NCBI GenBank assembly: GCA_018814025.1
Contig: JAHJAM010000002.1
Location: 2,798-66,797 of the forward strand
Direction: 5' to 3'
Length of the DNA stretch: 64,000 bases
Source of the DNA: Patescibacteria group bacterium
GTDB taxonomy: Bacteria > Patescibacteriota > Patescibacteriia > UBA9934 > GWF2-40-263
The notes under the pieces are model-generated. The model did not search any database. It was not told where the DNA came from and was given only the letters and a program-made list of their open reading frames with translations. Made by a program: the position numbers and the translations under genes. Positions 3,129-20,716 of this stretch are shown piece by piece; the stretch's first letter is position 1; every line of letters begins with the position of its first letter.

Positions 3129-3647
3129 ATGTCTGAAGAAAAAAAGAAATGTTTGTTCGTGGGCCGATTTCAGCCGTTTCATAACGGACACTTGATGGTG
3201 GTGTCGGGCATGGCCAAGGTGTGCAATCAAGTGATTATCGCCATCGGCAGCGCCAATGCGGAAAAGAGCTTAAAAAATCCTTTCACGGTCGAACAGCGGC
3301 GGGAAATGATCCAGCGCGCGCTGCAGTCGCAAGATTTGATTCCCAAATACGATATCAGCTTCATTGAGGTTGATGACAAAGAATCGGATTATGATTGGAC
3401 CAATCAGGTGTTGGAGCTGGCCGGGGATGACGTGGCGCAAGTTTGGACCGGGGACGAATGGACTAAGAAATGCTTTCAAGAAAAAGAAATCGAAGTCAAA
3501 GACATTAAAGAAGTGCCGGGCATCAGTGCCACGCAAGTGCGGCAGCTGATGATCGAGGACGGCGATTGGCACTTGAAGGTGCCGCCGGAAGTGGCGGATT
3601 ACCTGGATACGATTGGCGGCGTGGCGCGCGTAAAGTCATTAGCATGA
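3129..3647 (+). CDS. nicotinamide-nucleotide adenylyltransferase, archaeal NadM type
   Basis: GRFQPFHNGH matches the (H/T)xGH cytidylyltransferase motif, and the C-terminal ISATQVRQLM resembles the archaeal NMNAT ISGTxIR motif. The start was re-set to the ATG at 3129, which overlaps the upstream stop. Confidence 0.65.
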   Translation: MSEEKKKCLFVGRFQPFHNGHLMVVSGMAKVCNQVIIAIGSANAEKSLKNPFTVEQRREMIQRALQSQDLIPKYDISFIEVDDKESDYDWTNQVLELAGDDVAQVWTGDEWTKKCFQEKEIEVKDIKEVPGISATQVRQLMIEDGDWHLKVPPEVADYLDTIGGVARVKSLA

Positions 3648-4162
3648 GGCATCGAATCGGTAAGATTATCACGGCCGGTAAGCACGCGCTGCGAACGAAG
3701 CGCGATTGGTTTTGGTTTTTGGTGGCGAGCTTGGGATTTTTTTTATTGTTCGTGATGATTCCGGTTTGGACCACGCCGGGCGATGATTTTTTCTTTCATT
3801 TGTCCATCATGAAGTTTGAGGTTTATGGGTTGATGATCAGCTTGTCGTTTTTGAATGCTTATGTGATCAGCTTGCATCGGCATATTCGCCGGGTGCAGAA
3901 GGCGGCAGTGACCGCGACTCAAGTTGGATCCGGATTAAGCGCTTTGGCCAGCGGCTTGTTGGCCACGGTCGGTTGCGGAGCTTGTTATTCGAGTTTATTG
4001 GCCTTGTTCGGCTTGAGCGGTTCGGTGTTTATTGTTGAACATCGCTGGTGGTTTGCGGCCATGGCCGGGGGCTTGGCGATTTGGGCCATTGATTCAGCGG
4101 CCGAGAAGATAGTGGGCGGATGCACAAAGTGCCGGATTGAATCGGTTGACACCCCCTCATAA
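3644..4162 (+). CDS. hypothetical membrane protein with CxxC (GCGACYSS) motif
   Basis: Multi-TM ORF whose start overlaps the NadM stop (ATGA). Function unknown. Confidence 0.45.
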   Translation: MRHRIGKIITAGKHALRTKRDWFWFLVASLGFFLLFVMIPVWTTPGDDFFFHLSIMKFEVYGLMISLSFLNAYVISLHRHIRRVQKAAVTATQVGSGLSALASGLLATVGCGACYSSLLALFGLSGSVFIVEHRWWFAAMAGGLAIWAIDSAAEKIVGGCTKCRIESVDTPS

Positions 4163-4232
4163 TCTGTTAGTCTAAGAGGACAATCTGTTTGATCCCCCCT
4201 AGAGTCCAAGCTCTACGGGGATTTTGCGTTGT

Positions 4233-6233
4233 ATGGATAAATTTAAATTAAAAGCACCCTATCAGCCGGCTGGCGATCAGCCCAAAGCCATTGAACAATT
4301 AATGGCTGGTTTGGATTCGGGGAAAAAATTTCAAACTTTGCTGGGCGTGACCGGCTCGGGCAAAACCTACACCATGGCCAACGTGATTGCTAAATCCAAT
4401 CGCCCCACTTTGGTGATCGCCCATAACAAAACTTTGGCGGCCCAGCTTTGCAATGAGTTTCGAGAATTTTTTCCGGATCATGCCGTGGAATATTTCGTCA
4501 GTTATTACGATTACTATCAACCCGAGGCCTACATGCCGCGCTCGGATACTTATATTGAAAAAGAAGCGCAGATTAATGATGAGATTGATCGGCTGCGCCA
4601 CGCGGCCACCCAAGCCATTCTCACGCGGCGCGATGTGATTATCGTGGCCTCGGTTTCTTGCATTTATGCTTTGGGTTCGCCTGAGGAATATAAGGCCACG
4701 GTTTTGCATTTGCAGGTCGGGGAGGGGAATCGGGCGGATATTTTGCATACTTTGGTTAAATTGCAGTTTGAACGTACGAATGCGGACTTAACGCGCGGCC
4801 ATTACCGGGTGCGCGGCGATGTTCTGGAAATCATGCCCGTGGATCACGAAATAATATATCGCGTGACTTTTGCGGACGACGCGGTGGCGAAAATCGACCA
4901 AATGGATCCGATTACGCGCAAAAAGCTTGAGGAATATCAGGACGCTTGGCTGTTTCCGGCCACTCACTTTGTGGTTTCGCCAGCTAAACAACAACAGGCT
5001 TTGCGGGAAATTAAGCGCGAACTGGAGCAGCAATTAAAGAAAATGGATAAGGAAGGGAAAGTTTTGGAAGCCGAGCGTTTAAAGCGGCGCACTCGTTATG
5101 ATTTGGAAATGATTCAAAATATCGGCTATTGCAACGGCATTGAAAATTATTCGCGCTATTTTGACGGCCGAGCCCCGGGCCAGCCACCATATTCGCTGAT
5201 GGATTTTTTCCCCAAGGATTATTTGTTGATTATTGATGAATCGCACGTGACCGTGCCGCAAATCGGCGGCATGTACGAGGGGGATCGGGCGCGCAAGGAA
5301 ACTTTGGTGGAGCACGGGTTCCGCTTGCCTTCGGCCAAAGACAATCGGCCGCTGAAGTTTGAAGAATTTGAAGAGCGGGTCAATCAAGTAATTTTTACCA
5401 CGGCCACGCCGGGCAAATATGAATTGAAGAACAGCGAGCAAGTGGTGGAACAGATTATTCGGCCCACAGGGCTGATTGATCCGGAAGTAGTCGTGAGACC
5501 TGTATCTGGTGATGATAAGCAAAAAGGCCAGGTGGATGATTTGATCGAGGAAATTGTCACGCGAGCTAAGAAAAATGAGCGTTCGCTGGTCACGACTCTG
5601 ACCAAGCGCATGGCCGAGGATTTAACCGAGTTTTTGAAAGAACGCGACATTAAAGTGCAATATCTCCACTCTGATGTGCAAACTTTGGATCGGATTACGA
5701 TTTTGTCGGATTTTCGCCAGGGCAAATATGATTGCTTGGTGGGCGTGAATTTGCTGCGCGAAGGCTTGGATTTGCCGGAAGTGACGCTGGTGGCGATTTT
5801 GGATGCGGATAAGGAAGGTTTTTTGCGCAGTGCAACATCTTTGATTCAGACCATTGGCCGGGCCGCGCGCAATGTGGCTGGCAAAGTAATTTTGTACGCG
5901 GATAATATGACCGGTTCGCTGGGCCAGGCTTTGAAAGAAACCAATCGGCGCCGGAAAATTCAGCTGGCCCATAACCAAAAGCACCGCATCACGCCGAAAT
6001 CGATTAAGAAAGAAATTCATGATATTCGCGGCCTGCTGGGCGGGGAAGAAATTCCGGACATCAAAGATATTTTGAAACTGGAATTAACGGCCGAGCCGCA
6101 CGAAATCAAAGAAGTGATCGCGGAAAAAGAATATGACATGAAAGAAGCGGCCAAGAAATTGGATTTTGAGACAGCCGCGATTCTGCGGGATGAGATTAGA
6201 TTGTTGAATAATGAGTTGAAAGGAAGACAGTAG
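4233..6233 (+). CDS. uvrB: excinuclease ABC subunit B
   Basis: FKL..PY.PAGDQPKAI and the Walker A motif GVTGSGKT; 667 aa. The start was set at the ATG with GGGGA 11 nt upstream. Confidence 0.95.
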   Translation: MDKFKLKAPYQPAGDQPKAIEQLMAGLDSGKKFQTLLGVTGSGKTYTMANVIAKSNRPTLVIAHNKTLAAQLCNEFREFFPDHAVEYFVSYYDYYQPEAYMPRSDTYIEKEAQINDEIDRLRHAATQAILTRRDVIIVASVSCIYALGSPEEYKATVLHLQVGEGNRADILHTLVKLQFERTNADLTRGHYRVRGDVLEIMPVDHEIIYRVTFADDAVAKIDQMDPITRKKLEEYQDAWLFPATHFVVSPAKQQQALREIKRELEQQLKKMDKEGKVLEAERLKRRTRYDLEMIQNIGYCNGIENYSRYFDGRAPGQPPYSLMDFFPKDYLLIIDESHVTVPQIGGMYEGDRARKETLVEHGFRLPSAKDNRPLKFEEFEERVNQVIFTTATPGKYELKNSEQVVEQIIRPTGLIDPEVVVRPVSGDDKQKGQVDDLIEEIVTRAKKNERSLVTTLTKRMAEDLTEFLKERDIKVQYLHSDVQTLDRITILSDFRQGKYDCLVGVNLLREGLDLPEVTLVAILDADKEGFLRSATSLIQTIGRAARNVAGKVILYADNMTGSLGQALKETNRRRKIQLAHNQKHRITPKSIKKEIHDIRGLLGGEEIPDIKDILKLELTAEPHEIKEVIAEKEYDMKEAAKKLDFETAAILRDEIRLLNNELKGRQ

Positions 6234-6311
6234 AAGGTAGAGAGTAGAAAGGGAATTCACTTTCTACTTTCTACAGCGAGCCATGCGAGCGATATTACTT
6301 TTTACATAACT

Positions 6312-8834
6312 ATGAGCACAGATAAAATAACCATCAGAGGAGCGCGCGAACATAACCTGAAAAACATTAACCTGGAGATTCCGCGCAATAAACTGGTTTG
6401 CATTACCGGCGTTTCCGGCAGTGGCAAGTCCAGTTTGGCTTTTGATACGATTTTTGCCGAGGGCCAGCGCCGCTATGTTGAGTCTTTATCCGCTTACGCG
6501 CGGCAGTTTTTAGGGCAAATGGAAAAGCCGGATGTGGATGAAATCGAAGGCCTTTCGCCGGCCATTTCCATTGATCAAAAAGCGCACAGCTCCAATCCGC
6601 GCTCGACCGTGGCCACGATCACGGAGATTTACGATTATTTGCGCGTGCTGTTCGCACGCATCGGCCGGCCGCATTGCGTGAAGTGCGGACGGGAAATCCA
6701 GAAATTGACCATTGAAGAAATGGTGGACGTGGTTTTGAAGCGGCAAACCGCGGACAAAGGCGCGATTAAAATCTTGGCGCCGGTGGTGCGCGGGCGCAAG
6801 GGCGAGTATTATCAAATGCTTTACGATCTTTATAATTCGGGTTTTGCGCGCGTGCGCATTGACGGTCAAGAATACGATCTCAACAGCGAGATTAAGTTAG
6901 CGCGCTATCAACAGCATACGATTGAAGTGGTGGTGGATACGATTCCCGTGTCCTTGTTTGCCGCCGACGCGAAAGAAGCGCGCCAGCGCTTGGCGGATGC
7001 TTTGGAAATTGCCGTGGCGCGCGGGAATGACGTGGCCACGGTGATTTATCCGGACCAAAGCGAGCAAATGCTGTCCTCGAAATTCAGCTGTCCGGATGAC
7101 GGTTTTTCTTTTCCGGAAATCGAGCCGCGCTTATTTTCTTTTAATTCACCCTACGGTGCGTGCCAGGATTGCACGGGCTTGGGTACGGTGGAGCTGTTTA
7201 GCGAGGAAAAATGCCACACTTGCGAGGGCCAGCGTCTGCGCCCTGAGGCCTTGCATGTTTGGCTGCCGAAAAAAGGCGCCAAAGGCGTTTCGATCGTGGA
7301 TATCACCCGCATGAGCGTGGAGGAAGCCGGGGAATATTTTATAGATATTGTTTTGGACGAGCGGGAAAAGGAAATCGCGGGCACGGTTTTGAATGAAATT
7401 TTGAACCGTTTGCAGTTTATGCTGGACGTGGGGCTTCATTATTTAACTTTGGACCGCATGGCCGGCACTTTGTCCGGCGGCGAAGCGCAGCGCATTCGTT
7501 TGGCTTCGCAAGTCGGTTCGCGCTTAGTGGGCGCGCTTTATGTGCTGGACGAGCCGACTATCGGTTTGCATCAGCGCGATAATGATCGCTTGATCCAAAC
7601 TCTGACCGAATTGCGCGACTTGGGCAATTCGGTTTTGATCGTGGAGCATGATGAGGACACGATTCGGGCCAGCGACCATATGATTGAAATCGGGCCGGGC
7701 GCGGGCGTGCACGGCGGCGAAGTGGTGTGCAATGGCAGCGTGCCGGAGATTTTTAAGGATCAAAAGTCCTTGACCGCGGCTTATTTGCGCGGAGACGAAA
7801 AAATTGACGTGCCCCGGGAGCGGCGTGCCATCGGCCATGACCGGATTAAAATTGTGGGCGCGAGCGAACATAACTTAAAAAACATCAACGTGGAAATTCC
7901 GCTGCGCCGGTTTGTTTGCATTACCGGCGTGTCCGGATCCGGGAAATCAACTTTGGCTTATGAAACCATGTATAAGTCGATTGCTAAGCGTTTGTATGGC
8001 AGTAAGCATCGACCAGGCAAGCATAAATCGTTGTTGGGCATTGAATATATCGACAAAGCGATTTTGATCGATCAGGGCGCGATCGGCCGTTCTTCCCGAT
8101 CCAACCCGGCCACTTATACCGGAGTTTGGGCGCCGGTGCGTGAATTATTTTCGGCCACGGAGGAAGCGCGCTATCGCGGCTATAAGCCGGGCCGGTTCAG
8201 TTTCAATCGGCCGGGCGGGCGCTGCGAACATTGCGAAGGCCATGGATTATTGGCCATTGAAATGCACTTTTTGCCCACGGTGTATGTGACTTGCGACGTG
8301 TGCAAAGGCCGGCGTTTTGATCGGGAAACTTTGGAGATTGAATATAAAGAAAAAAATATCCATGACGTGCTGGAAATGACCGTGGAGGAAGGCTATGAAT
8401 TTTTTAAAGAGATTCCGCCGATTGCGGACAAGTTGAAAACTTTAAATGAAGTGGGTTTGGGCTATTTGAAGATGGGCCAGCCGGCGCCAACCTTATCCGG
8501 CGGGGAAGCGCAGCGCGTGAAGCTGGCTTCGGAATTATCCAAACGGCAAACCGGACGCACTTTGTATTTATTAGACGAGCCGACCACGGGTTTGCATTTT
8601 GCGGATGTAAAAAAACTTTTGGAAGTTTTGCATTCACTGGTGGATAAGGGCAACAGCGTGATTGTGATCGAACACAACTTGGATGTGATTAAAACCGCGG
8701 ATTGGCTGATTGACTTGGGACCGGAAGGTGGTGACAAGGGCGGGGAAGTGGTCAAATGCGGTACACCGGAAGAAATCGCCCGGCACGCGCCATCGTATAC
8801 TGGGGAATATTTGAAGCGGATGTTTAAGAAGTGA
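6312..8834 (+). CDS. uvrA: excinuclease ABC subunit A
   Basis: HNLKNI...[34 protein letters not shown], two ABC modules and zinc-finger cysteines. Confidence 0.95.
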
Positions 8835-8890: not shown

Positions 8891-9004
8891 TAAGTCCTTC
8901 CAGCATGCCGTTGGGAGAAACAGCCGTCTAGGGCAATGAAGGCGCGACGCGTTCGACTAGTGCGAACGTCCGCGCTGCTGCACCTAACGCGGCAGGAGAG
9001 GCAA

Positions 9005-10153
9005 ATGGAAAAAGCAGTGTCAGGAGTTTTCGCGGAATTGGTCGCCCAGCTGCACAGCGGCCGGCGCCTTACCTTCGAGCATCTCAAGGAATTCCTTGAC
9101 GACCCGCAGGCGGTCATTCCCAGGCAGAATGGAGAATTCGAGATCCTGCTCGCCCTTTTAAAACCGAACGAGGAAGTCATGGAGTTCGGTCTTGAGGACG
9201 ACCGGCAGGCCCTGGTGATCAAGCGCGACAAGGAATATTTTGCGGTGCTGGACGGCGTCGAGCATGGACCCTACGCCGAGATCAAGAGTTTCTTGCATGA
9301 TGACACCCACTTTTGTTTCGCGGCTAAGCGCGGCGAAAACTGGTTTGTGGTCAGGGATGGCGGGGAGTTCGGACCCTACGATCACATCAACGACCTGAAG
9401 TACAGCAACGACCATGTCTTTTTTGAGATCTCCACGGTCATCAATGGCGAAAAAACAGCCGTAGCCGTTCTGGATGGTAAGGTGTTGGGGTCGACGGGCG
9501 GACGCAGCCACGTTGGTTTGGTCGATGGCCACCATTTTTTTGTCCACCCGAGAGATGATGGAGAATGTTATGTGAGTTTGGACGACCAGAAATTTGGGCC
9601 GTTCGCTCCGGTTTCCGGCTTGGGGTATGCGGAAGGCCATTTTTTCTTCATCGAAGGGAACCGCATCCATCTGGACCGCGAAACCATCGATGTTGACGGG
9701 ACTCCTCATCTGGTGGGATATGCGGAAGGCCATCTTTTCTACATCCTCGAACGCACATGTAATCAGAAGAGCGAGTGCTATGCGGTTCTGGATGGAAAAG
9801 AATTTGGGCCGTACGAGTTTTGTGCCAGACCGAATCTTGGTTATTCGGAAGGCCATTTCTATTTTCTGATCGTCGCAGACCGTACGTATGGTGAGGTGAT
9901 CGGAGTCATGGTGGACGGAAAGCAAATCGCCCGCGTCGGCAATGCCTATGACTTGCAGTATTCAAATGGCCACTCATTGTTTCACATGTGGAATTCGGAA
10001 ACCCGAATTGTCCGGGTAATCATGGACGGGCGGTTAGGTGACACGAACATGGATTACGACACAATTTACCTCACGCAGGCCAAGGATAATCGCTTGTTCA
10101 TCTATGGCCGGCGCGGACGGCGGATTTACAAAACCGTCATTCCTCTCAAGTAG
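9005..10153 (+). CDS. tandem-repeat protein with ~38-aa DG.EFGPY...H.FF repeats, unknown family
   Basis: At least 7 degenerate repeats. A strong SD (GGAGAGG) precedes the ATG at 9005. GC content is about 58%, against roughly 48% in the flanks. Confidence 0.6.
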   Translation: MEKAVSGVFAELVAQLHSGRRLTFEHLKEFLDDPQAVIPRQNGEFEILLALLKPNEEVMEFGLEDDRQALVIKRDKEYFAVLDGVEHGPYAEIKSFLHDDTHFCFAAKRGENWFVVRDGGEFGPYDHINDLKYSNDHVFFEISTVINGEKTAVAVLDGKVLGSTGGRSHVGLVDGHHFFVHPRDDGECYVSLDDQKFGPFAPVSGLGYAEGHFFFIEGNRIHLDRETIDVDGTPHLVGYAEGHLFYILERTCNQKSECYAVLDGKEFGPYEFCARPNLGYSEGHFYFLIVADRTYGEVIGVMVDGKQIARVGNAYDLQYSNGHSLFHMWNSETRIVRVIMDGRLGDTNMDYDTIYLTQAKDNRLFIYGRRGRRIYKTVIPLK

Positions 10154-10239: not shown

Positions 10240-10644
10240 CTAGAGGAGGCCGAGGAAGCCGAGCCAGCGGCCGTTTTTTGCCCATTGTTTCGGATAGGTG
10301 CGATCAGGGCGTGAGGGCAGGCGCGGATCTTCGCGAAAACGTCTCATGTATTCGGGTTGGGATGGGCATCTCAGCTTGAGTGCGGATTCATGCGCTTCTC
10401 GATAAGTGAGATATTTTTTGATTTTGGGGGCTTGGCCTAAAAATCCGGACATACCGCCAATGCGTTTCCAAGCTCGTTGACCGTAGAATTTATCCGGATT
10501 GGAAGGCAGACGCTTATCGAGATTGTAAAATTCGGCGTATTGAACTCCGGTCTCGAAACCGAGGTTTTGCGCTGCCTGACTGGCTTGTTGGATTTTTGAG
10601 TAAAATCGCGCTCGAGGATCGTATTTTTTTCGTCTTTGAACCAT
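10240..10644 (-). CDS. repeat protein with ~45-aa EDPRLP...Y..W..GGW..FLG repeats (short paralog)
   Basis: 2-3 copies of the same repeat seen in the adjacent upstream gene. Confidence 0.5.
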   Translation of the reverse strand: MVQRRKKYDPRARFYSKIQQASQAAQNLGFETGVQYAEFYNLDKRLPSNPDKFYGQRAWKRIGGMSGFLGQAPKIKKYLTYREAHESALKLRCPSQPEYMRRFREDPRLPSRPDRTYPKQWAKNGRWLGFLGLL

Positions 10645-10736: not shown

Positions 10737-11732
10737 TTAGGCAGCGAGTCTGATTTGTGCGAACAAGCCGTTCCAACCGCCAATTTGTTGCCAGTTAATC
10801 GGTTTGGCGTTTCGGTAGGTTCGGTCTGGTCGAGCGCGTAACTTTGGATCTTCATGGAAACGTCGGAGATATTCAGCCTGGGTAATGATCCCGAGTTTGC
10901 GTATCGCTCCAATCACCTCGTTCAAGGTTTCGTAAGCGTCATGGCGCCTGGTTCGGCCAAGAAAAGCTGGCCAACCACCGTAGGCTTTCCAGACGCGATA
11001 GAATTTTTGATCTGGATGCGAGTAGAGACGCGGATCTTCGCGATAGCGCCGCTCATATTCCGGTTGGGATTGTATTCCTAAGCGGATTGCGGCTTCTGAA
11101 CAGATTTTCCAGTTCGCGTATTTTTTTGTTGGTTTTCTTCGGTTGAAAAATCCGTACCAACCGCCGTTTGATCGCCAATACTTTTTGTAACGATTCCACG
11201 GATCGGCCGGCAGGCGCGGATCTTCGTCATAACGCAACGCGTATTCCGTTTTTGTTTTGATACCAAGAGTGGCAACGGCAGCCGCGGCTTCATAGATGTT
11301 TGGATAGTAAGGGCCGCGTGCGGGTTTGGGTTTACGCTGAAGAAATGTATCCCAACCCGGCCAATCCGGATATTTGAATCGCGGTTGAGAATGAAGTCGC
11401 AGGTCCAGATACCGTTTGGCGTCGTATTCGCGCGCTGAACGGATATTGAGTTTTATGGCTGATTCGCTTGCCTGTTGCCAAGTTGGGTAATAATGATCCC
11501 TTAATTTTTTTATCAAGAAATCATCCCAACCTCGCCAGTCATTGGCATATTGTCTGGGCGGATTCGGTGGCAACTTGGGATCCAGCTCTTTTTTCTCCCA
11601 GTAGGTTAATTGGGAATAGATTCGGAGTCGGCGGACAGAAATTTTGGCTTCGATAAGGGAATTATAGTAGTCAGGCACTGAAATCTGTTCGCCGTCCAGA
11701 TCGAATAAGGCTGTGACATCTTTTTTTCGCAA
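10737..11732 (-). CDS. repeat protein with 5-6 copies of ~45-aa EDPRLP/GGW..FLG repeat
   Basis: Internal tandem repeats of the form Y.EA..A..LGI.S..EY...Y.EDPRLP..P...Y..W...GGW..FLG. Confidence 0.55.
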   Translation of the reverse strand: MRKKDVTALFDLDGEQISVPDYYNSLIEAKISVRRLRIYSQLTYWEKKELDPKLPPNPPRQYANDWRGWDDFLIKKLRDHYYPTWQQASESAIKLNIRSAREYDAKRYLDLRLHSQPRFKYPDWPGWDTFLQRKPKPARGPYYPNIYEAAAAVATLGIKTKTEYALRYDEDPRLPADPWNRYKKYWRSNGGWYGFFNRRKPTKKYANWKICSEAAIRLGIQSQPEYERRYREDPRLYSHPDQKFYRVWKAYGGWPAFLGRTRRHDAYETLNEVIGAIRKLGIITQAEYLRRFHEDPKLRARPDRTYRNAKPINWQQIGGWNGLFAQIRLAA

Positions 11733-11811
11733 GGCTGTCTCCTTGTGAAAGAGCGAATTATTGCGGGCGTGGGTAGGATAGCGAAATTTGGGAATATGTC
11801 AAAGGTTGGAT

Positions 11812-13149
11812 ATGATATCAGTGCTTATGCTTCCCGTTAAAATACAAGTTCAAAACAACCATCTGCCGGACAGTCCAGGCGTGTATTTTTATTACGACCG
11901 GGCCGGGGAGTTGCTGTATATAGGCAAAGCCACTTCATTAAAGAAACGCGTGGGGTCATATTTCGTTAAAGCTCACGACGACCGGATTGGGGAGATGGTC
12001 AGCCAGATTGCGAGGATTGACTATATTGAAACTCCGACCGTGATTGAGGCCTTGGTTTTGGAAGCTAATCAAATCAAGACTAAAAAGCCGAAATATAATA
12101 TTTTGGAACGGGATGACAAAAGCTTTTTGTATTTGGTGATTACTAATGAAGATTATCCGCGGCCGCTCCTGATGCGCGGACAAGAACTCGAGCGATTGGG
12201 AATTGATCCGTTCCGCGCGAAATTGACGGACAAGACCAAGAAAAAGTTTTTGGCCGTGTTCGGGCCGTATACGAGCGGGTCGTCACTTAAAAAAGCTTTG
12301 GATCTGATTCGCAAATTTATTCCTTGGTCGGATTGTTGGCCGCCGGAAGCGACCGGGCGCAAGCGAGCCTGTTTTAATGTGCATTTAAGAAAATGTCCGG
12401 GCGTGTGCACGGGCGCGATTAGCAAAAAGGACTATCGGCGCATCATCAAGCATTTGATCATGTTTTTTGAGGGCAAGAAGCTGCAATTGATCAGACAGAT
12501 GGAAAAAGAAATGAAACAGGCGTCCAAAGCGCAGGAATATGAACGGGCCGCGGATTTGCGCAACAAGATTGGCGCGCTCAAGCACATTCGGGATGTGGCT
12601 TTGATTGTTAAAGAAGATTTTGAACTGCCGGTAACACGGGTCAAAGAAGAAATGATTGATTTGGATGGCCGCATCGAGGCCTATGATATTAGCAATATTT
12701 CCGGCACTTCGTCCGTGGGTTCAATGGTCGTGTTTGAGGAAGGCGTGCCGGCCAGGGATAAATATCGCAAGTTCAAAATCAAAACCGTGCCGGGCGCTAA
12801 TGACGTGGCCATGCTGGAGGAAGTGATGCGGCGGCGGTTGAAGCGGTCAAAAGATTATCCGCAAACTTGGCCGTTGCCGGAAATAATGGTGATTGATGGG
12901 GGAGCGGGCCAGGTGAATCGGACGCAAGCGGTTTTGGATGAATTGCGCGTTAAAGTGCGGATTATCGGCATTGCCAAGGGTTTTGACCGCAAGCAAGATC
13001 GGTTGGTTTTTAATCGCGAGGATTTGGAACTGGCGCGCGTGGCCACGCGCGGCAAGGAAATTTTTCAAAAAGCGCGCGATGAAGCGCATCGGTTCGCGAT
13101 TAAGTATCATCGGCAGGTGCGAGGAAGGAAGTCTTTGGGTCAAAATTGA
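11812..13149 (+). CDS. uvrC: excinuclease ABC subunit C (short form)
   Basis: GIY-YIG motif (SPGVYFYY...YIGKATSLKKRVGSYF) and a UvrC central domain. The alternative in-frame starts are TTG 11788 and ATG 11827, so the exact start is ambiguous. Confidence 0.85.
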   Translation: MISVLMLPVKIQVQNNHLPDSPGVYFYYDRAGELLYIGKATSLKKRVGSYFVKAHDDRIGEMVSQIARIDYIETPTVIEALVLEANQIKTKKPKYNILERDDKSFLYLVITNEDYPRPLLMRGQELERLGIDPFRAKLTDKTKKKFLAVFGPYTSGSSLKKALDLIRKFIPWSDCWPPEATGRKRACFNVHLRKCPGVCTGAISKKDYRRIIKHLIMFFEGKKLQLIRQMEKEMKQASKAQEYERAADLRNKIGALKHIRDVALIVKEDFELPVTRVKEEMIDLDGRIEAYDISNISGTSSVGSMVVFEEGVPARDKYRKFKIKTVPGANDVAMLEEVMRRRLKRSKDYPQTWPLPEIMVIDGGAGQVNRTQAVLDELRVKVRIIGIAKGFDRKQDRLVFNREDLELARVATRGKEIFQKARDEAHRFAIKYHRQVRGRKSLGQN

Positions 13150-13207: not shown

Positions 13208-13552
13208 ATGGGGAAAATTTTACAACAAATTGAAAAGATTCAGGGAATCTTAGTGACCATGGACAAGCGTTTTGATTCCATGGATGGGCGGATTAATACT
13301 GTTGAAAGATCCATAAATCAGATAATGGATTTTTTGAAAGAACACATGTTAATGCGTCAGGAGGCGTATGAGATTTTTGTCACAAAAGATGAGGCAAAGG
13401 TTATGAAGGATGAGTTATTGACGGCAATTGATGGGAATACAAAGAAAGTAAACGATTTTGATGCTGAATTGGCGGCTGGAAGATCTCACAGACTAAGACT
13501 AGAGGGTAGAGTGGACAAAATTGAGAAGAAAATGGGAATTGCCTCAGCTTAA
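13208..13552 (+). CDS. hypothetical coiled-coil protein
   Basis: 114-aa ORF, heptad-rich. A bidirectional terminator follows at 13555-13595. Confidence 0.4.
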   Translation: MGKILQQIEKIQGILVTMDKRFDSMDGRINTVERSINQIMDFLKEHMLMRQEAYEIFVTKDEAKVMKDELLTAIDGNTKKVNDFDAELAAGRSHRLRLEGRVDKIEKKMGIASA

Positions 13553-13554
13553 AA

Positions 13555-13595
13555 ATAAAAAAAGCCGCCCTCGGAGTACCGGGGGCGGTTTTTTG
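13555..13595. terminator. bidirectional terminator
   Basis: ccgccctcgg-agta-ccgggggcgg with A-run and T-run flanks. Confidence 0.5.
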
Positions 13596-13603
13596 GTCGG
13601 CGG

Positions 13604-14227
13604 TTAAGCGAAATTGATGATTTCGCCGCCATCCGGCCAGGGTGATGGGCAATAGCCGCTGAGCGTAATGAACAGGACCGGCGGCGCTTCTTGGCGCCAG
13701 CCTTGAAGAACAGCCGCGATTTGGTGCGGATGATCCGGCCGCATTTCTTGCCGGCAAATGTTTTTGGCCATCGTGATGATGACCGCTGAGTTTAAAGATT
13801 CTCGCCCCGTGAATTTGGAGGCGCTTTGGGCGCCCGGTTTCAGGTTGAGCCGGAGAAGATTATCCGAACGCAGGATTTTATTTGGCCGGAAGGATTGGCC
13901 CGAATAGAGCTTTTTGGCTTTGGAACGCCACCAGCCTTGCGAGACGATCGAGAGATCGATTGGCGCACTGCTAATGACCAGCACCCAATCAGCCAGGACG
14001 ATTTGTGTGCCGTCCGCGGAAATCGCGACCGCCTGATCAAAATCTTTTTCCGCTTGCGCCACAATTTCGGAGACGAGAATCGATAGATCGGGTTCGGTTT
14101 CGTCTTGGCAAAAAGTGCGGAATGGTTGGCCGGGTTTAAGATTTTGTCGCTCTCGAAGTTTTGAAGCAACGCGGTGCAGGGAGAATTGGCGTCGCAATTC
14201 CTCGTTGGTTCTGGAAAAAAGAACCAT
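13604..14227 (-). CDS. hypothetical protein, paralog A of gene 16135..17106
   Basis: The N-terminus M.LF...EELR..F, the segment AVAISADGTQIVLADWVLVI and the C-terminal SGYCPSPWP..EII all align with paralog B. The SD GAGGAAAAA precedes the ATG. Confidence 0.55.
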   Translation of the reverse strand: MVLFSRTNEELRRQFSLHRVASKLRERQNLKPGQPFRTFCQDETEPDLSILVSEIVAQAEKDFDQAVAISADGTQIVLADWVLVISSAPIDLSIVSQGWWRSKAKKLYSGQSFRPNKILRSDNLLRLNLKPGAQSASKFTGRESLNSAVIITMAKNICRQEMRPDHPHQIAAVLQGWRQEAPPVLFITLSGYCPSPWPDGGEIINFA

Positions 14228-14334
14228 TTTTTCCTCGGGTCAGGCAAAAGCGTTATGCCGGTTTGGGTTTATATTTCGGATCAGTTTTTATACAATTTCA
14301 TTGAAGCAAATTGCGCTCCGTACGTCAAAATAAA

Positions 14335-14362
14335 AAACCGCTCTCGGATGAGAGCGGAAAGA
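14335..14362 (-). terminator. rho-independent terminator after the small membrane gene
   Basis: On the minus strand, ccgctctc-atccg-agagcgg followed by TTTTTTATTTT. Confidence 0.5.
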
Positions 14363-14365
14363 GAT

Positions 14366-14596
14366 TTACGGTCGCGGACTGCTGATCAATTCGCGAACTT
14401 GCTGATAGCCGCGAATGAACGCATAGCCAACCAGAGAAAGGTGCATGGCCACGATCAGACACAGCCACCAGAGGCCGTGGGCGCGCCAGAGGACTAGGAT
14501 GAATGCGCCGCCAAGGACCGTGAAAAAGAGCAAAAAACCGATGAGATAAGCATTGACGATATCCCGTTCGGAAGGCGGCCAATGCATTTGGCGCAT
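14366..14596 (-). CDS. small membrane protein (2 TM)
   Basis: 76 aa. Its ATG lies 1 nt after the upstream stop (TAA-A-ATG), which suggests translational coupling. The SD GGGGT lies inside the upstream gene. Confidence 0.45.
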   Translation of the reverse strand: MRQMHWPPSERDIVNAYLIGFLLFFTVLGGAFILVLWRAHGLWWLCLIVAMHLSLVGYAFIRGYQQVRELISSPRP

Positions 14597-14599
14597 GTT

Positions 14600-14986
14600 T
14601 TACCCCGCCCAAAAACCGGAATAAACGGTTCCGTTATGGTGGAGATGGATGAAGATTTCCGCGCGCCAGCCTTCGTCTAGGCGGTCTTTCATGGCATTGC
14701 CCAGAAAAGAGGCCAGGCGGGCCGCGGCTTTCAAAGGATCATTCGGACTTTCGTGCGGACTGATTTCCACGGTCGCCACCACGGTTTTGTCTGCACCTGG
14801 TTCGGTTTGCGACGGGCCGAAGACCACATGGACCATCTCTTTCCGGATGATGCCGGGCAGGCGCGCATCCAGGACATGACGGCGCATGTCTTCGCGCACT
14901 ACGAATTGCCAGGTGTCGTTTAGGTTGGGTCTGCGTTCCGGATCGTTGAGACTGGCCGGCCAGTTTGAGATCGTAATCAACGTCAT
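14600..14986 (-). CDS. tautomerase-superfamily-like protein, Thr instead of Pro at position 2
   Basis: The N-terminus MTLITISNWP parallels MPLITVWNWP of gene 15607..15984, and the C-terminus resembles MIF-like tautomerases. The start was re-set to the ATG with SD GAGGTG; the longer ORF call from 15214 was rejected. Confidence 0.4.
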   Translation of the reverse strand: MTLITISNWPASLNDPERRPNLNDTWQFVVREDMRRHVLDARLPGIIRKEMVHVVFGPSQTEPGADKTVVATVEISPHESPNDPLKAAARLASFLGNAMKDRLDEGWRAEIFIHLHHNGTVYSGFWAG

Positions 14987-14994
14987 GTTCCACC

Positions 14995-15150
14995 TCACCG
15001 ATTGTCTGTGGTGTAGGACGGCTTCTCGGTCGGCGCCTTGGGCACGGGTTCGGTATAAAGGTAAAATGTCCCGGCGATTAGGATTAGCGCTATAACAATG
15101 CTGAAAATGGTCAGGATGCGAGTGTCGCGCTCGCTGTTGGCCTTGCTCAC
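14995..15150 (-). CDS. small hydrophobic ORF (51 aa, GTG start)
   Basis: The SD GGAGG sits 6 nt upstream of GTG, and a TTGACA-17-TATCTT promoter lies just upstream. The ORF overlaps the RBS of the next gene. It is absent from the ORF track because it is shorter than 60 aa. Confidence 0.3.
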   Translation of the reverse strand: MSKANSERDTRILTIFSIVIALILIAGTFYLYTEPVPKAPTEKPSYTTDNR

Positions 15151-15185
15151 AACAAACCTCCGTAGTTGTCTCTCGCGGACAGCTT

Positions 15186-15214
15186 AAGATAGCCATTTTG
15201 GGGAAATTTGTCAA
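15186..15214 (-). promoter_or_regulatory. sigma70-like promoter (TTGACA-17-TATCTT)
   Basis: Read on the minus strand. It sits between the terminator of the 97-aa tautomerase gene and the small ORF. Confidence 0.45.
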
Positions 15215-15267
15215 GTGTTTCGGATAAAGATCGAAGGCGACCCATTGTTTAATTAAAAGAAAAAGCC

Positions 15268-15287
15268 CCGAGCTGGCTCGGGGCGTG
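15268..15287 (-). terminator. rho-independent terminator
   Basis: GCCCCGAGCCAGCTCGGGGC hairpin followed by TTTTTCTTTT on the minus strand. Confidence 0.55.
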
Positions 15288-15289
15288 GA

Positions 15290-15583
15290 TTAGGTAACGG
15301 GTTTGGGTCCGGGGATGTCGTCAATCGAATCCACAAATACCAAGAAGGATTCATTGGCCACGGGAACGTATTCGGCCGTGGTTGGGTGAAGGAACTGATT
15401 CGCGACGAGCAGCCGTTGGGTTTTGATGATTTCGGTAAAATGGGTGTGATGCTGGAGAATGCTTCCAAGATTAGCCCCTTGTTCAAAGCAATAACTGTAG
15501 ATTCTTTTTGAGGCTGAATTATGCTCCCAGTCTTCGCCGGGTTTGAATCGGCCCTCGACGTAGATAATGTTGAGGGAAGGCAT
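15290..15583 (-). CDS. 4-oxalocrotonate tautomerase-like protein (Pro1)
   Basis: MPSLNIIYVEGR is very similar to the canonical 4-OT N-terminus MPIAQIHILEGR. A strong SD AAGGAGACA precedes the ATG. Confidence 0.5.
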   Translation of the reverse strand: MPSLNIIYVEGRFKPGEDWEHNSASKRIYSYCFEQGANLGSILQHHTHFTEIIKTQRLLVANQFLHPTTAEYVPVANESFLVFVDSIDDIPGPKPVT

Positions 15584-15606
15584 GGGTGTCTCCTTTCGCT
15601 TCGGAG

Positions 15607-15984
15607 TCAGACGCAGAATCCGTCCTTGACCGGGTCAAAGCGCTTGACCGCGACCTCGACGTTCCATTCGTGAGTGGTCGTCTTGTTGATAAGTTTCAGA
15701 GCTTGCTGGTGCAAGGTTTCGGCCAGATGCTGACGGATTTCGGAGGTGCGCTCGGGGAGGTCATGTAACAGTTCGACGATGATGATCAGGGTGCGGTCGT
15801 CGGACAAAACCTGCGAGCCGGCGAAGCAGACGCTGACCAGTTCCGGGCCGTCGATGCCAGGCACTTCTGCGGACACGCAAGCCTCGCGCAGCAGATGGGC
15901 AAAACCATTCTGTCCTTGGATAGTGCCGTCGGAAAACGGTGTGGAAAATTCCACGGGCCAGTTCCAAACTGTGATCAGGGGCAT
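15607..15984 (-). CDS. tautomerase-superfamily protein (Pro1, ~126 aa long form)
   Basis: The N-terminal MPLITVWNWP has Pro directly after Met followed by a beta-strand-like hydrophobic pattern. The SD AAGGAGA precedes the ATG. The start was re-set from the ORF-track 16032. Confidence 0.5.
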   Translation of the reverse strand: MPLITVWNWPVEFSTPFSDGTIQGQNGFAHLLREACVSAEVPGIDGPELVSVCFAGSQVLSDDRTLIIIVELLHDLPERTSEIRQHLAETLHQQALKLINKTTTHEWNVEVAVKRFDPVKDGFCV

Positions 15985-16080
15985 GGGTTGTCTCCTTTTG
16001 AAAGAACGATTCACCTTTTGAAGCCGTGACAAACGCGTCGCGGGCTCAAGAAGTGCCCCGAGCGGACTTGGGGCAAGCTA

Positions 16081-16113
16081 CGAGGTTTTTTACGATCGTA
16101 AAAAACCTCGTAA
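16081..16113. repeat. 33-bp perfect palindrome TACGAGGTTTTTTACGATCGTAAAAAACCTCGTA
   Basis: Perfect dyad with a CGATCG centre. A second copy with a compensatory G-to-A / C-to-T change in the arms lies at 32641-32673. Confidence 0.8.
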
Positions 16114-16134
16114 GAAAGAATTTGCGGTAGTGAT

Positions 16135-17106
16135 CTAGCGGACTCGGCGCGGAATGATTTTTGTCGGTTCCGGCAGAGGATATTGGCAATTGGACGCGGT
16201 GGTGATGAAACGACGCGTGTTGTCAAAGTATTTTTCGTCGCGCAAGTAGATCTGGTTGAGGGCATTGAAGTCTTCGAGCGTGAGTTTGGTGTGTTCGAGC
16301 CAAGAAAGAAAGTTGATCTTACGGTCATTCTCTTCAAGATAACCAATATCGGTCAAGAAAAGCTGGTCGCTTTTCGCTATGGCGCAATAAAAGGCTTCGC
16401 GGTGTTGCCGGCCCGTATCGCTCAGCATAATTTTTTGTTGAAGAAACGGCGTTTCCGGATAGAGTAAAAAACGATCCTTTTCGACCACGATCACTTCAGT
16501 CGCGGTGATGATTCGAGTTCCATCTTCCGAACAAGCAACTGCGGAGTTGAAATCATCACTTGCTTGTTGTCGAATGGTTTTAATTGAGTGCTGGAGTTCA
16601 TTTACCAAGAAAGTTCTGGCTTTGTGTTTTGGATCCGTGCGGTTTTGCCAAGACCAGAGCAACGCGTCAACAATCATGATCGCATTCGGTGTCGCGGGTT
16701 CACCTTTTGAGTTCGGGAAGAAAATCGCTTTTTCGTGCGATGATGTGAAGATGAAGATCGGGACACTTCCAGTCAGGTAGATCTTTGCTTCGTGTTCAAT
16801 CAGGAAATTCCAGAGGGGGCTGAATTTGTTTTGGGTCAGGTTTTCGCGACACCAGAGTTGGTATTGCGAGTGGGCCGGATTGATTGGCACAGCAAATTTC
16901 TTTAGCACATCATAGTTATCTTCTTTGATGATCCAAGAGAGCTGGATGCGGCAATTGTTCCAAAAGGTCGCATTTGGTTGTTCGACGTTCGACTGTTGAA
17001 CGACTATTTGTTCGACGTTATAACAGCCGAAGTTGGTCTCTTCAGCGAAACGATTCCGGACAAAGGCCTCGCGCAACTCTTCGTAGCTTTTTGTGAAAAG
17101 AGCCAT
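16135..17106 (-). CDS. hypothetical protein, paralog B of gene 13604..14227 (with insertions)
   Basis: The N- and C-termini and the segment AVACSEDGTRIITATEVIVV align with paralog A. A strong SD AAGGAG is present. Confidence 0.55.
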   Translation of the reverse strand: MALFTKSYEELREAFVRNRFAEETNFGCYNVEQIVVQQSNVEQPNATFWNNCRIQLSWIIKEDNYDVLKKFAVPINPAHSQYQLWCRENLTQNKFSPLWNFLIEHEAKIYLTGSVPIFIFTSSHEKAIFFPNSKGEPATPNAIMIVDALLWSWQNRTDPKHKARTFLVNELQHSIKTIRQQASDDFNSAVACSEDGTRIITATEVIVVEKDRFLLYPETPFLQQKIMLSDTGRQHREAFYCAIAKSDQLFLTDIGYLEENDRKINFLSWLEHTKLTLEDFNALNQIYLRDEKYFDNTRRFITTASNCQYPLPEPTKIIPRRVR

Positions 17107-17234
17107 GATCTTACTCCTTCTACGGAGGGTGTTCGCTGGTTTCTAGGCCTTGAACACCGGTTAATCGAATGGGCAGAACATCTACCCAAAGGACACGTTA
17201 AGTTAGCCAGTTTTGTAGGATTTGTCAAGGAGAG

Positions 17235-17468: not shown

Positions 17469-17900
17469 ATGTTTATTGGAGAATACAAACATAACATTGA
17501 CGAGAAAGGACGCTTAGCCATCCCGGTTAAGTTTCGTTCTGACTTGGCCAAAGGAGCTGTGGTGACGCGAGGTCTGGATACTTCGCTTTTCCTGTTCCCC
17601 ATGGAGGAGTGGGACAAGTTGGCTCAGAAATTAGCTAATTTGCCCCTGGGGCAGTCCAACAGCCGTGCCATCGCCCGACTCATGCTTGCGGGTGCTATGG
17701 ACGTAGAAATGGACAAACAGGGAAGGGTAGTAATCCCGGAGTACCTGCGAGAATACGCGGGTATGAAAAAAACAGTCGTTTTAGCCGGACTATATAACCG
17801 ACTAGAGATCTGGGAACAAAGTAAATGGGAAGAGTACAAAGCCGCAACCGAAAAGGACGCGGAAGAAATCGCGGAAACATTAGGAGAGCTAGGAATTTAA
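17469..17900 (+). CDS. mraZ: transcriptional regulator MraZ
   Basis: MFIGEYKHNIDEKGRLAIP and the duplicated DXXXR-type halves; 143 aa. Confidence 0.9.
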   Translation: MFIGEYKHNIDEKGRLAIPVKFRSDLAKGAVVTRGLDTSLFLFPMEEWDKLAQKLANLPLGQSNSRAIARLMLAGAMDVEMDKQGRVVIPEYLREYAGMKKTVVLAGLYNRLEIWEQSKWEEYKAATEKDAEEIAETLGELGI

Positions 17901-17923
17901 TTCGAACATAGGGTAACGCGATT

Positions 17924-18043
17924 ATCACACATCAGCTTGTCGATGTGTGATAGACGTGCAACCTTACGTGAGCCAAAGCGAGAGAAAAGAAAAGTTTACT
18001 TTTCTTTTCCGAGCGCGGCGAACGCAAAGGGCGTGAGCCCTTT
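17924..18043 (+). promoter_or_regulatory. three consecutive stem-loops in the mraZ-rsmH intergenic region
   Basis: First, TATCACACATC-N7-GATGTGTGATA, an 11-bp perfect stem. Second, AGAAAAGAAAAGT-TT-ACTTTTCTTTTC. Third, AAAGGGC-GTGA-GCCCTTT. Confidence 0.4.
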
Positions 18044-18055
18044 ATCCAATAAGGT

Positions 18056-18934
18056 ATGATTGCGCACAAACCGGTTTTGCTCGAGGAAGTGATTGCTCTT
18101 CTTGAGCCAAAATCGAACCAGAGTTTTATTGACGCCACAGTGGGGCAGGGTGGGCATGCTCACGAGATATTGAGCCATACCCATCCTGATGGGCGTCTGC
18201 TGGGCATCGACCGCGATGCTCCGAATCTCAACATCGCCAAAAAGCGCCTTAAGCCTTTTGGTGCGCGAGCGGTTCTGGTTCAGGACAGCTACGCCAACGT
18301 AAGCACCCACGCTTATGCTCATAAATTTTCTCAAGTTGATGCCATCCTGGTGGATCTGGGTTTCTCCTCGGCTCACATTGATGATCCGAAGCGAGGCTTC
18401 AGTTTTCAACAGGAAGGGCCTTTAGACATGAGGTATGACACGCGGCAGAAGTTAACGGCCGCGGAGATCGTCAACACTTGGGATGAAGATGAGCTCGCTC
18501 GGGTCTTTAGAAAATTAGGAGAGGAAACTTATGCTCGTCAGATTGCCAAAGCAATCGTGAAAGCCCGTGTGCTAGGGGACTTTCAGACCACGACCCAGCT
18601 CGCTGAGCTGATTGTCAAAAATAAACGTCGTGGCGGAAAGATCCATCCGGCAACGCAGGTTTTCCAGGCTTTGCGCATGACCGTGAATCGTGAGCTGGAG
18701 GAACTCGAGAAGGCTCTACCGGAGTTTGTCTCGCTTCTTCGGCCAGGAGGACGGCTGGCGGTCATATCCTTCCATTCCTTGGAGGACAGAATTATTAAAC
18801 AGTTCTTTGCGGATAAACAAAAAAACAAAGAAATAAAGATCCAAACTAAAAGACCAATCACTGCGACTTTGTCAGAAATAAAAAGCAATCCTCGGGCGCG
18901 CAGCGCCAAGCTACGAGTCGCGGAAACAGTATAA
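18056..18934 (+). CDS. rsmH: 16S rRNA (cytosine1402-N4)-methyltransferase
   Basis: HKPVLLEEVI...DATVGQGGHA, a SAM-binding motif typical of RsmH/MraW. Confidence 0.9.
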   Translation: MIAHKPVLLEEVIALLEPKSNQSFIDATVGQGGHAHEILSHTHPDGRLLGIDRDAPNLNIAKKRLKPFGARAVLVQDSYANVSTHAYAHKFSQVDAILVDLGFSSAHIDDPKRGFSFQQEGPLDMRYDTRQKLTAAEIVNTWDEDELARVFRKLGEETYARQIAKAIVKARVLGDFQTTTQLAELIVKNKRRGGKIHPATQVFQALRMTVNRELEELEKALPEFVSLLRPGGRLAVISFHSLEDRIIKQFFADKQKNKEIKIQTKRPITATLSEIKSNPRARSAKLRVAETV

Positions 18935-20239: not shown

Positions 20240-20716
20240 GTGAAGCAAAAAGAATTTGATAAATTTTACCGTCGGAACATTGACCGTATCTATCGATACG
20301 TGTTTTTTCGTATTGGGCAAAATCATGAAATTGCGGAAGATTTGGTGAGTGAGATTTTTTTAAAGGCTTTAAATAAGTTTGATGATTATGATGAAAAAAA
20401 GTCCAAATCAGCTTGGATATACACAATCGCGCATAATCATTTGGTAAACTATTATCGAGATAAGAAAGTTGAGATTGATTTTGACGATTTGATCATGGAT
20501 TCCCGTTTGCACGGGAATGACGGCAGGGGAGAGGTTTTTTTGGAGATTGAGGGGATTTTAGCAAAATTATCAAAAGAAGATCGTCGGCTTGTAACCATGA
20601 AGTACTTGGAAGGGTATAAGTATTCAGAGATGGCGGAGATTTTGGGGCGTCAGGCCAACGCGCTTAAAGTCGCTACCCATCGCTCACTTAAAACAATTAA
20701 AGACGGTTTGCGTTAA
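20240..20716 (+). CDS. ECF-type RNA polymerase sigma factor
   Basis: Sigma70 region 2 (IYRYVFFRIGQNHEIAEDLVSEIFLKA) and region 4 (EDRRLVTMKYLEGYKYSEMAEILG). Confidence 0.8.
   Translation: MKQKEFDKFYRRNIDRIYRYVFFRIGQNHEIAEDLVSEIFLKALNKFDDYDEKKSKSAWIYTIAHNHLVNYYRDKKVEIDFDDLIMDSRLHGNDGRGEVFLEIEGILAKLSKEDRRLVTMKYLEGYKYSEMAEILGRQANALKVATHRSLKTIKDGLR

Follow-up and report, generated by a model that had tools for sequence, protein, structure and literature searches.

A divergent, unannotated subgroup of the tautomerase superfamily in a gene block between uvrC and mraZ of a Patescibacteria group bacterium

We have analysed a block of seven minus-strand open reading frames (ORFs), found by ORF calling between uvrC and mraZ in a 64,000-nt stretch (the window) of contig JAHJAM010000002.1, part of a metagenome-assembled genome from the Patescibacteria group, also known as the candidate phyla radiation (CPR). 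All seven are labelled hypothetical proteins at NCBI (KJ611_00140 to KJ611_00170). One of them encodes a protein of 125 amino acids (aa) which, judged by its modelled structure, is a divergent and unannotated member of the tautomerase superfamily, a classification adopted because the protein has the superfamily fold and the N-terminal proline (Pro1) but is not recovered by the curated models. A 128-aa product of the same block is a paralog carrying threonine in place of this proline (Thr1), and both proteins are very probably superfamily members by fold. A previous interpretation drawn from the DNA letters (the sequence-only reading) had proposed an integrated accessory module of three tautomerase paralogs, the third of 97 aa, bracketed by two mutually paralogous proteins, A and B. 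Comparisons were made with loci fetched from relatives, designated L002, L006, L009, L017, L020, L021 and L029-L034.

The Pro1 protein family and its Thr1 paralog

The 125-aa protein, given as 126 aa in the sequence-only reading, begins MPLITVWNWP, placing proline directly after an initiator methionine whose removal is assumed. Its predicted structure contains two beta-alpha-beta units, as in the fused members of the superfamily, with strand 1 beginning at residue 3, and the structures nearest to the model are enzymes. The model, combined with conservation of the Met-Pro start, confirms at the level of the fold that this protein is a tautomerase-superfamily member, as had been proposed. For the Pro1 protein, a word-indexed search recovered just five related clusters, whereas exhaustive HMMER searching from a profile of six sequences returned 217 representatives at E ≤ 1e-3, 83 of them at E ≤ 1e-10. 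The family thus comprises ~217 clusters at 50% identity, its representatives are nearly all 110-140 aa long, and those members that could be placed taxonomically are Patescibacteria. A Met-Pro start is found in 122 of the 153 listed members, several of the exceptions being mis-called starts with an internal MP, and Pro1 is absent in about 6-7% of those listed. An alignment of 30 members reveals conservation of M1-P2, N8, V70-E71, LFDKPERT (with R79 and T80), R84, L87-A88, E110-V111, R115-F116, P118 and D121, the subgroup motif being VE-LFDKPERT, including R79 and T80. In locus L021 (5605-7085), a tautomerase-like gene is seemingly split over two frames (5605-6105 and 6109-6366), a possible frameshift, and a second, weaker family copy lies at 6732-7085.

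The Thr1 protein is 31% identical to the Pro1 protein (BLASTP E = 9e-9) and is matched over its full length by the family hidden Markov model (HMM; E = 1e-26), its fold being assigned through this homology. The gene opens ATG ACG, preceded by GAGGTGG 5 nt upstream, in agreement with the earlier description of a paralog in which the catalytic proline is replaced. An assembly error is unlikely since two NCBI accessions and an independent assembly from Logan all give the identical protein sequence. Its closest relative is P0037, a 127-aa protein with a Met-Pro start (42% identity, E = 1.7e-30), whose gene in L029 carries CCC as second codon as opposed to ACG in the window. Judged from the codons, the exchange of Pro for Thr would take one base change (CCN to ACG); starting from a CCG codon, a single transversion would be enough. 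The Thr1 protein lacks the family residues R79, T80, R84, R115, F116 and D121; P0037 likewise lacks R79, T80, R84, R115 and F116, and both carry VEI(S/R)P...FIHxH instead. These sequence comparisons place the Thr1 protein, a genuine paralog, in a sister subfamily and show that it is not a recent copy of the Pro1 gene. Because threonine replaces proline and the whole subfamily is without the arginine set, the Thr1 protein is, by analogy, probably non-catalytic or altered in its chemistry, and perhaps a partner subunit of the Pro1 protein. In the superfamily at large, 346 of more than 11,000 members lack Pro1, the replacements being mostly Ser, Ile and Ala (Davidson et al. 2018, PMC5818174).

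Operon layout, the 97-aa ORF and a shared promoter core

The features of the block are collected in Table 1. The seven ORFs, the two terminators and the internal promoter had been placed correctly in the sequence-only reading, as had the flanks, with UvrC domains (GIY-YIG, UVR, RNase H-like) at 11788-13149 on the left and MraZ and RsmH at 17469-18934 on the right. Two operons with near-identical promoters, B-Pro1-97aa and 51aa-Thr1-76aa, are the likely arrangement, with gene A transcribed separately. The strong Shine-Dalgarno (SD) sequences attributed to the block are present, as GGAG-type sites, upstream of six of the seven starts, the 76-aa ORF being preceded by a weak G-run only. By hydropathy, the 51-aa ORF has a single predicted transmembrane (TM) segment and the 76-aa ORF has two, bearing out the earlier description of both; neither has a Pfam match reaching threshold, and neither has a relative in any fetched locus.

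Table 1. Features of the block and related elements in fetched loci (positions in the window or in the locus named)
Feature	Sequence	Position	Strand	Remarks
Two-way terminator-like hairpin	window	13555..13594	.	CCGCCC...GGGCGG with A/T runs; after gene A and the convergent 114-aa ORF; read from sequence
Gene A, 207 aa	window	13604..14227	-	short A/B-family member; own SD site; without the shared promoter core
Intrinsic-terminator-like hairpin	window	14338..14357	-	would end the 51aa-Thr1-76aa operon; 8-pair stem, 6 GC pairs, T-run
76-aa ORF	window	14366..14596	-	two predicted TM segments; start just past the Thr1 stop
Thr1 tautomerase-fold paralog, 128 aa	window	14600..14986	-	Met-Thr start; sister subfamily; homology to the Pro1 protein
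51-aa ORF	window	14995..15150	-	GTG start; one predicted TM segment; GGAGG 7 nt upstream of the start
Second-operon promoter (predicted)	window	15177..15214	-	TTGACA, 17 nt, TATCTT, then 3-mismatch copy of the 19-nt core; direct repeat D1
Intrinsic-terminator-like hairpin	window	15265..15284	-	would end the B-Pro1-97aa operon; 8-pair stem, 7 GC pairs, T-run
97-aa orphan ORF	window	15290..15583	-	start MPSLNIIYVEGR; resemblance to 4-OT confined to the first 12 residues
Pro1 tautomerase-superfamily protein, 125 aa	window	15607..15984	-	fused type, two predicted beta-alpha-beta units
B-Pro1 intergenic region	window	15985..16134	-	strongly structured; perfect 17+17-nt palindrome at 16079-16112 (repeat I1)
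Gene B, 323 aa	window	16135..17106	-	full-length A/B-family member
B-operon promoter (predicted)	window	17191..17228	-	TTGACA, 17 nt, TAACTT, conserved core TGGCTAACTTAACGTGTCC
Core copy	L009	2180-2198
Core copy	L002	8778-8796
Core copy	L029	349-367
70-76-aa protein	L029	1381-1611		between two tautomerase-like genes
70-76-aa protein	L002	9309-9521		between two tautomerase-like genes
70-76-aa protein	L030-L034			between two tautomerase-like genes

The 97-aa ORF had been read as a third, 4-OT-like tautomerase. Its start, MPSLNIIYVEGR, shares 6 of 12 positions with the 4-OT N-terminus MPIAQIHILEGR, and after removal of methionine it has, as do short 4-OTs, both Pro1 and an arginine at position 11. 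The resemblance does not extend beyond the N-terminus: the local alignment with 4-OT covers residues 1-12 only, and 17% of shuffles score as high. No Pfam match, no PDB sequence match at E ≤ 10, no homolog among 5.8 billion clusters and no match to the tautomerase-like family HMM or profile was obtained. Comparison with the Pro1 and Thr1 proteins gave no BLASTP alignment and an hhalign probability of 0.5%. The 4-OT-like assignment is therefore not upheld, as only the first 12 residues resemble 4-OT in a protein with neither homolog nor Pfam match, and two of the three proposed tautomerase paralogs, the Pro1 and Thr1 proteins, remain.

In relatives, a conserved 70-76-aa protein lies directly downstream of the Pro1 ortholog (L002, L029-L034), with the pattern LLLEFR...RIYF.RGR.L.WILEANPEI.KLLAG...YRPKNCD.IYY and without a Met-Pro start. 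No match between the 97-aa ORF and the small L002 and L029 proteins was obtained with BLASTP or phmmer. Smith-Waterman alignment to the same two proteins gave z = 6.2 (one of 2000 shuffles as good) and z = 3.6, respectively, hhalign gave P = 0.0019 over 25 columns, and 12 columns are identical in all three sequences in a three-way alignment. The 97-aa ORF is possibly a diverged positional homolog of the 70-76-aa protein, or else a lineage-specific ORF.

The two operon promoters form the 39-nt direct repeat of the block. In the B-operon promoter, the 19-nt core TGGCTAACTTAACGTGTCC overlaps the -10 hexamer TAACTT and runs downstream of it, with the -35 hexamer TTGACA 17 nt upstream of the -10, giving the pattern TTGACA-N14-GGCTAACTTAACGTGTCC. 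The sigma-70-like site of the second operon spans 15214-15186, and a copy of the core with three mismatches precedes this operon. The window carries one exact copy of the core, in front of B. In L009 an exact copy precedes the B ortholog, in L002 the Pro1 ortholog and in L029 P0037, and the window and ~300 kb of fetched loci contain no others. The core is 100% identical across these four related contigs, and it is under stronger constraint than the genes, because the proteins downstream are only 55-82% identical. The promoter core element probably includes an operator. Behind the core comes TNTGG(G/C)T, so that TGG(C/G)T occurs twice with a spacing of 22 nt. In the window as in L009, the copy preceding B lies in the intergenic region shared with the divergent mraZ. 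A promoter for an extracytoplasmic function (ECF) sigma factor was considered on account of the ECF sigma gene beside the L002 cluster and rejected, the AAC and CGT elements being just ~5 nt apart. An ECF sigma factor is encoded at 20240-20716.

The B-Pro1 intergenic RNA folds at -50.9 kcal/mol (z = -3.98 vs shuffles). Two hairpins 3' of its palindrome are kept downstream of the B ortholog in L009, where the palindrome itself is absent. Rfam searches of the block gave chance-level, terminator-like matches only, and no family for the B-Pro1 intergenic region.

Several features flank the block. One arm of the two-way hairpin after gene A resembles the terminator at 14332-14347 (repeat I3). A 114-aa ORF on the plus strand (13208-13552), between uvrC and gene A, is convergent with A and shares this two-way terminator; it has a GC content of 0.38 and weak, sub-threshold Pfam matches, mostly to coiled-coil families. 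Repeats of the INT_rpt type (integrase repeat unit) make up two adjacent minus-strand ORFs at 10240-10644 and 10737-11732 (Pfam E = 4.5e-22 and 1.6e-32). These two and a 405-aa ORF without Pfam match (8936-10153) split the otherwise contiguous uvrB-uvrA ... uvrC.

The A/B family, gene neighbourhoods and the question of an island

Proteins A and B align by BLASTP with E = 2e-7 in the central block and 0.002 at the N-terminus, and the family HMM matches A at E = 2e-60, results which support their earlier description as paralogs and rule out that they are unrelated. Four clusters of the protein search and eight additional loci in GTDB species genomes, the latter all assigned to Parcubacteria, Saccharibacteria, Uhrbacteria or unclassified Patescibacteria, make up the family as assembled here, and all named genomes carrying it are Patescibacteria/CPR. 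Alignment of 14 members shows nine invariant columns, located within R-x2-A-x2-DF-x2-AVA-x-S-x-DG-x2-I of the central motif, an N-terminal motif LF-x5-ELREAFV-x2-RF, a central motif R-x2-A-x2-DF-x2-AVA-x-S-x-DG-x2-I-x2-A-x2-V-x-V and, in most members, a C-terminal motif C-P-x-P-L-P-[DE]-G-G. Both A and B carry the N-terminal and central motifs. The shared C-terminus that had also been described is seen in A as C-P-S-P-W-P-D-G-G and only in a looser form, C-Q-Y-P-L-P-E-P, in B. A is without B residues ~25-160, the least conserved part of the family, which includes a low-confidence stretch of B (53-144). As had been noted, the two proteins resemble no recognisable family: Pfam gave nothing on the 14 members and the AF2 model of B (pLDDT 59) has no fold match. 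Both are cytoplasmic in our interpretation. A and B are old paralogs, not the product of a recent flanking duplication, because A is nearer to the family consensus than to B. By sequence, A and B are thus real paralogs, and their family is known to date from CPR genomes alone.

In L009, the closest relative, a second full-length B-family paralog (~35% identical) is located at 3412-4293 on the plus strand, directly after the B ortholog (82% identical) and in the position occupied by the Pro1 gene in the window. As this second copy follows the B ortholog, the A/B family expands in tandem beside mraZ. In L006, a high-GC CPR contig, a ~100-nt element is repeated after two different genes (~11030-11140 and ~12290-12400), seen as matching antisense ORF fragments in an all-against-all BLAST.

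In each of the three closest lineages, tautomerase-like paralogs lie clustered together. In the window these are Pro1 ... Thr1; the L002 cluster comprises the Pro1 ortholog (76% identical to the window protein), a 70-aa ORF and another gene starting MPLVRIENYP; and L029/L032 carry P0037, P0004, a 76-aa ORF and a third tautomerase-like gene of 140 aa, which in L032 has degenerate motifs. Further tautomerase-like genes are solitary among assorted, mostly housekeeping-looking genes, that of L020 lying next to a UDP-glucose-dehydrogenase-like gene. The suggestion that A/B genes co-occur with tautomerase genes does not hold generally in about 20 other loci: a tautomerase-like gene is absent from eight further A/B loci and from the P0009 locus L006 (up to 10 kb on each side), and an A/B gene is absent from 11 further tautomerase-like loci (up to 6 kb on each side). 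All-against-all BLAST of 5-6 kb around 10 tautomerase-like and 11 A/B loci identified no partner common to the loci as a group; apart from the two families, its matches were overlapping frames, a few genes confined to single locus pairs and the tautomerase-like cluster. From the UDP-glucose-dehydrogenase-like gene onward, L017 (1-7208) and L020 (5900-12380) are collinear at 68-78% nucleotide identity, and just upstream of the collinear stretch one slot is occupied by an A/B gene in the former and by a tautomerase-like gene in the latter. The paralog clusters, the promoter core and this slot suggest a regulon, or else a pool of flexible genes, that the clade has in common; they do not point to an obligatory complex.

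The proposal of an integrated module found no support in the features expected of a genomic island or mobile element. No integrase was found for the block, the INT_rpt ORFs lying beyond uvrC; the only tRNA gene in the first 30 kb, at 2072-2145, is far away; the promoter pair is the only direct repeat in the block, and there are no flanking repeats; and neither the tautomerase-like nor the A/B family has copies on viral contigs (IMG/VR). The claim of a GC content above that of the core neighbours is correct for the Pro1 (0.574) and Thr1 (0.568) genes, at the top of the window genes (mean 0.493, sd 0.039, maximum 0.574), and incorrect for B (0.467) and the 97-aa ORF (0.486), which are average, leaving a modest shift that does not cover the block. 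That the region is variable between close relatives was confirmed, L009 having its second B-like paralog and L002 carrying ECF sigma, A2M and Memo genes in the interval from mraZ to the Pro1 gene. The tautomerase cluster of L002 lies on the same side of the mraZ region as in the window, and because it keeps this side, a vertically inherited region with high gene turnover fits better than a recently integrated element.

Interpretation and relation to known enzymes

With no great margin of confidence, we consider it somewhat more probable than otherwise that the block consists of two operons, includes a divergent tautomerase subgroup and has been inherited vertically. The 125-aa protein would form a trimer, by comparison with fused 4-OT, cis-CaaD, CHMI, MSAD and MIF. 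After removal of methionine, Pro1 at the start of strand 1 could act as catalytic acid or base, by analogy with characterised members; arginines R79, R84 and R115, at the start of helix 2 and in strand 4, might hold the carboxylate of the substrate; and an acidic residue, E110 or D121, may assist as does Glu114 of cis-CaaD. The enzyme would then need no cofactor and would catalyse the keto-enol tautomerisation, hydration or decarboxylation of a small keto or unsaturated acid, and the Thr1 protein, probably inactive or altered in its chemistry, may associate with it. A classical role in aromatic meta-cleavage is unlikely in a CPR genome, and no genes of such a pathway are nearby.

A number of observations count against this explanation. 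The fold assignment derives from a single model built on a 6-sequence alignment. Among curated models, with Pfam Tautomerase, Tautomerase_2, Tautomerase_3, MIF and CHMI those considered for the superfamily, Pfam and NCBIfam do not match the 125-aa protein at E ≤ 1, neither library returned a meaningful match for the other block proteins, and Pfam scanning of 146 family members gave one match to Tautomerase_3 (5.6e-4) and one to Tautomerase_2 (2e-3). Single-sequence and profile searches of the PDB with the block proteins gave no significant match, the profile search returning 4-OT chains only at E = 1.2-1.8. No conserved neighbour at the examined loci points to a pathway, and CPR bacteria are not known to have the aromatic-degradation pathways of the classical family members. 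Since P1 mutants of tautomerase-superfamily enzymes keep some activity, replacement of the proline need not have abolished activity in the Thr1 protein. B is tied to the tautomerase cluster only indirectly, by operon position here and by the common promoter core in relatives.

The same data can be arranged differently. If the tautomerase-fold proteins were non-enzymatic, with a binding, scaffold or regulatory function and paralogs that diversify binding specificity, as argued for some MIF-like proteins, the absence of metabolic gene context at any locus, the clustering of paralogs with sometimes degenerate motifs (Thr1 and the 140-aa copy in L032) and the metabolic reduction of CPR genomes would all be accommodated. 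This is nevertheless unlikely, as Pro1 in ~80% of listed members combined with invariant charged residues is the pattern of a catalytic site, not of a binding surface, and the structures closest to the model are those of enzymes. Alternatively, the 97-aa ORF, and perhaps the 51-aa one as well, could be chance ORFs in operon spacers, the Met-Pro start being coincidental; the former has no relative in the 5.8 billion clusters and a GC content unlike that of its neighbours (0.57), the latter has no relative in the fetched loci, and neither has a threshold Pfam match. We regard this too as improbable in view of the good SD at the right spacing before both ORFs, the filling of the gap from the Pro1 stop to the terminator by the 97-aa ORF, the small ORF with weak similarity in the same position in relatives, and the clean TM helix of the 51-aa ORF directly after a promoter.

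The version given in the sequence-only reading, in which three tautomerases, one a canonical short 4-OT, form with A and B an acquired island for isomerisation or detoxification, draws on the Met-Pro start and Arg11 of the 97-aa ORF, its position directly after a tautomerase-fold gene, its own strong SD, GC values of the middle genes that are among the highest in the window, the variation of the region among relatives and the alternative occupants of the L017/L020 slot. It is set against an ORF without homolog, Pfam or family-profile match, whose overall similarity to 4-OT is at chance and whose weak relatives have no Met-Pro start, against the absence of linkage between A/B and tautomerase-like genes elsewhere, and against the missing marks of integration and the average GC of B, and it is unlikely. 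The further suggestion of a toxin-immunity set, or of anti-phage defence, with the small membrane ORFs as effectors or immunity partners, could appeal to the TM ORFs beside the Thr1 gene, to the variability of the region and to a DUF2283/DUF4258 pair at the A/B locus L006. None of the seven block proteins matches PADLOC at E ≤ 0.1, and PHROGs matches are chance-level only (E ≥ 0.02); the TM ORFs have no relatives in related loci, neither family occurs on viral contigs, and tautomerase-like genes are usually solitary amid housekeeping genes. Such a function is highly improbable. A more elaborate possibility, to which we also assign a low probability, is a CPR-specific regulon controlled via TGGCTAACTTAACGTGTCC, joining the B family, two or three tautomerase-fold paralogs (one a pseudo-enzyme) and the 70-97-aa partner; it would give rise to a new catalyst, hetero-oligomeric and dependent on Pro1, for a metabolite that matters to the episymbiotic lifestyle, for example a host-derived keto or unsaturated acid.

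Returning to the divergent tautomerase subgroup, the closest parallels are the fused 4-OTs of the 4-OT subgroup (PDB 6BLM, 6VVR, 6VVW), which, like the Pro1 protein, have ~125 aa, two beta-alpha-beta units and a Met-Pro start. The arginine of the Pro1 protein right after strand 3, at the start of helix 2, corresponds to the position of Arg11 in short 4-OT. In contrast, identity to the fused 4-OTs is 11-20% without a significant sequence or profile match, the Pro1 family conserves its own set of residues (N8, T80, R84, E110, R115, P118, D121), and aromatic meta-cleavage genes are not found near the Pro1 gene. The cis-CaaD group (9NF9; N1 7M58; Tautomerase_3) is also fused and of the trimer type, and includes the Pfam family matched by one member of the Pro1 family (E = 5.6e-4). 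Pro1, the two arginines near the start of helix 2 and the C-terminal acidic residue may recall Pro1/Arg70/Arg73/Glu114, whereas the Pro1 protein has 125 aa as opposed to ~149, and equivalents of His28 and Tyr103 could not be assigned. CaaD alpha/beta and heterohexameric 4-OT resemble the block in having clustered paralogs, one with a full catalytic set and one degenerate, but their subunits are short and single-unit, those of the block being fused and two-unit; a hetero-oligomer of the block paralogs is conceivable purely by analogy. Similar to superfamily members that lack Pro1 (PMC5818174), the Thr1 protein aligns over its full length with a Pro1-bearing family; it differs in having Thr in place of Ser, Ile or Ala, in lacking other active-site residues as well, and in that its nearest relative has Pro1.

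The block thus adds a new, sequence-divergent branch to a known enzyme superfamily and is not a new kind of system, and it opens no long-standing question. A subgroup of ~217 clusters that escapes curated sequence models, with conserved residues of its own, provides a defined target for enzymologists and enlarges the range of sequences known for a superfamily that serves in biocatalyst engineering. The Pro1/Thr1 pair, together with the Pro1-bearing relative of the Thr1 protein, constitutes a natural test of the necessity of the N-terminal proline. An entry to gene regulation and to dark-matter genes in the CPR is offered by the A/B family and by the 19-nt core, whose conservation far exceeds that of the proteins encoded downstream.

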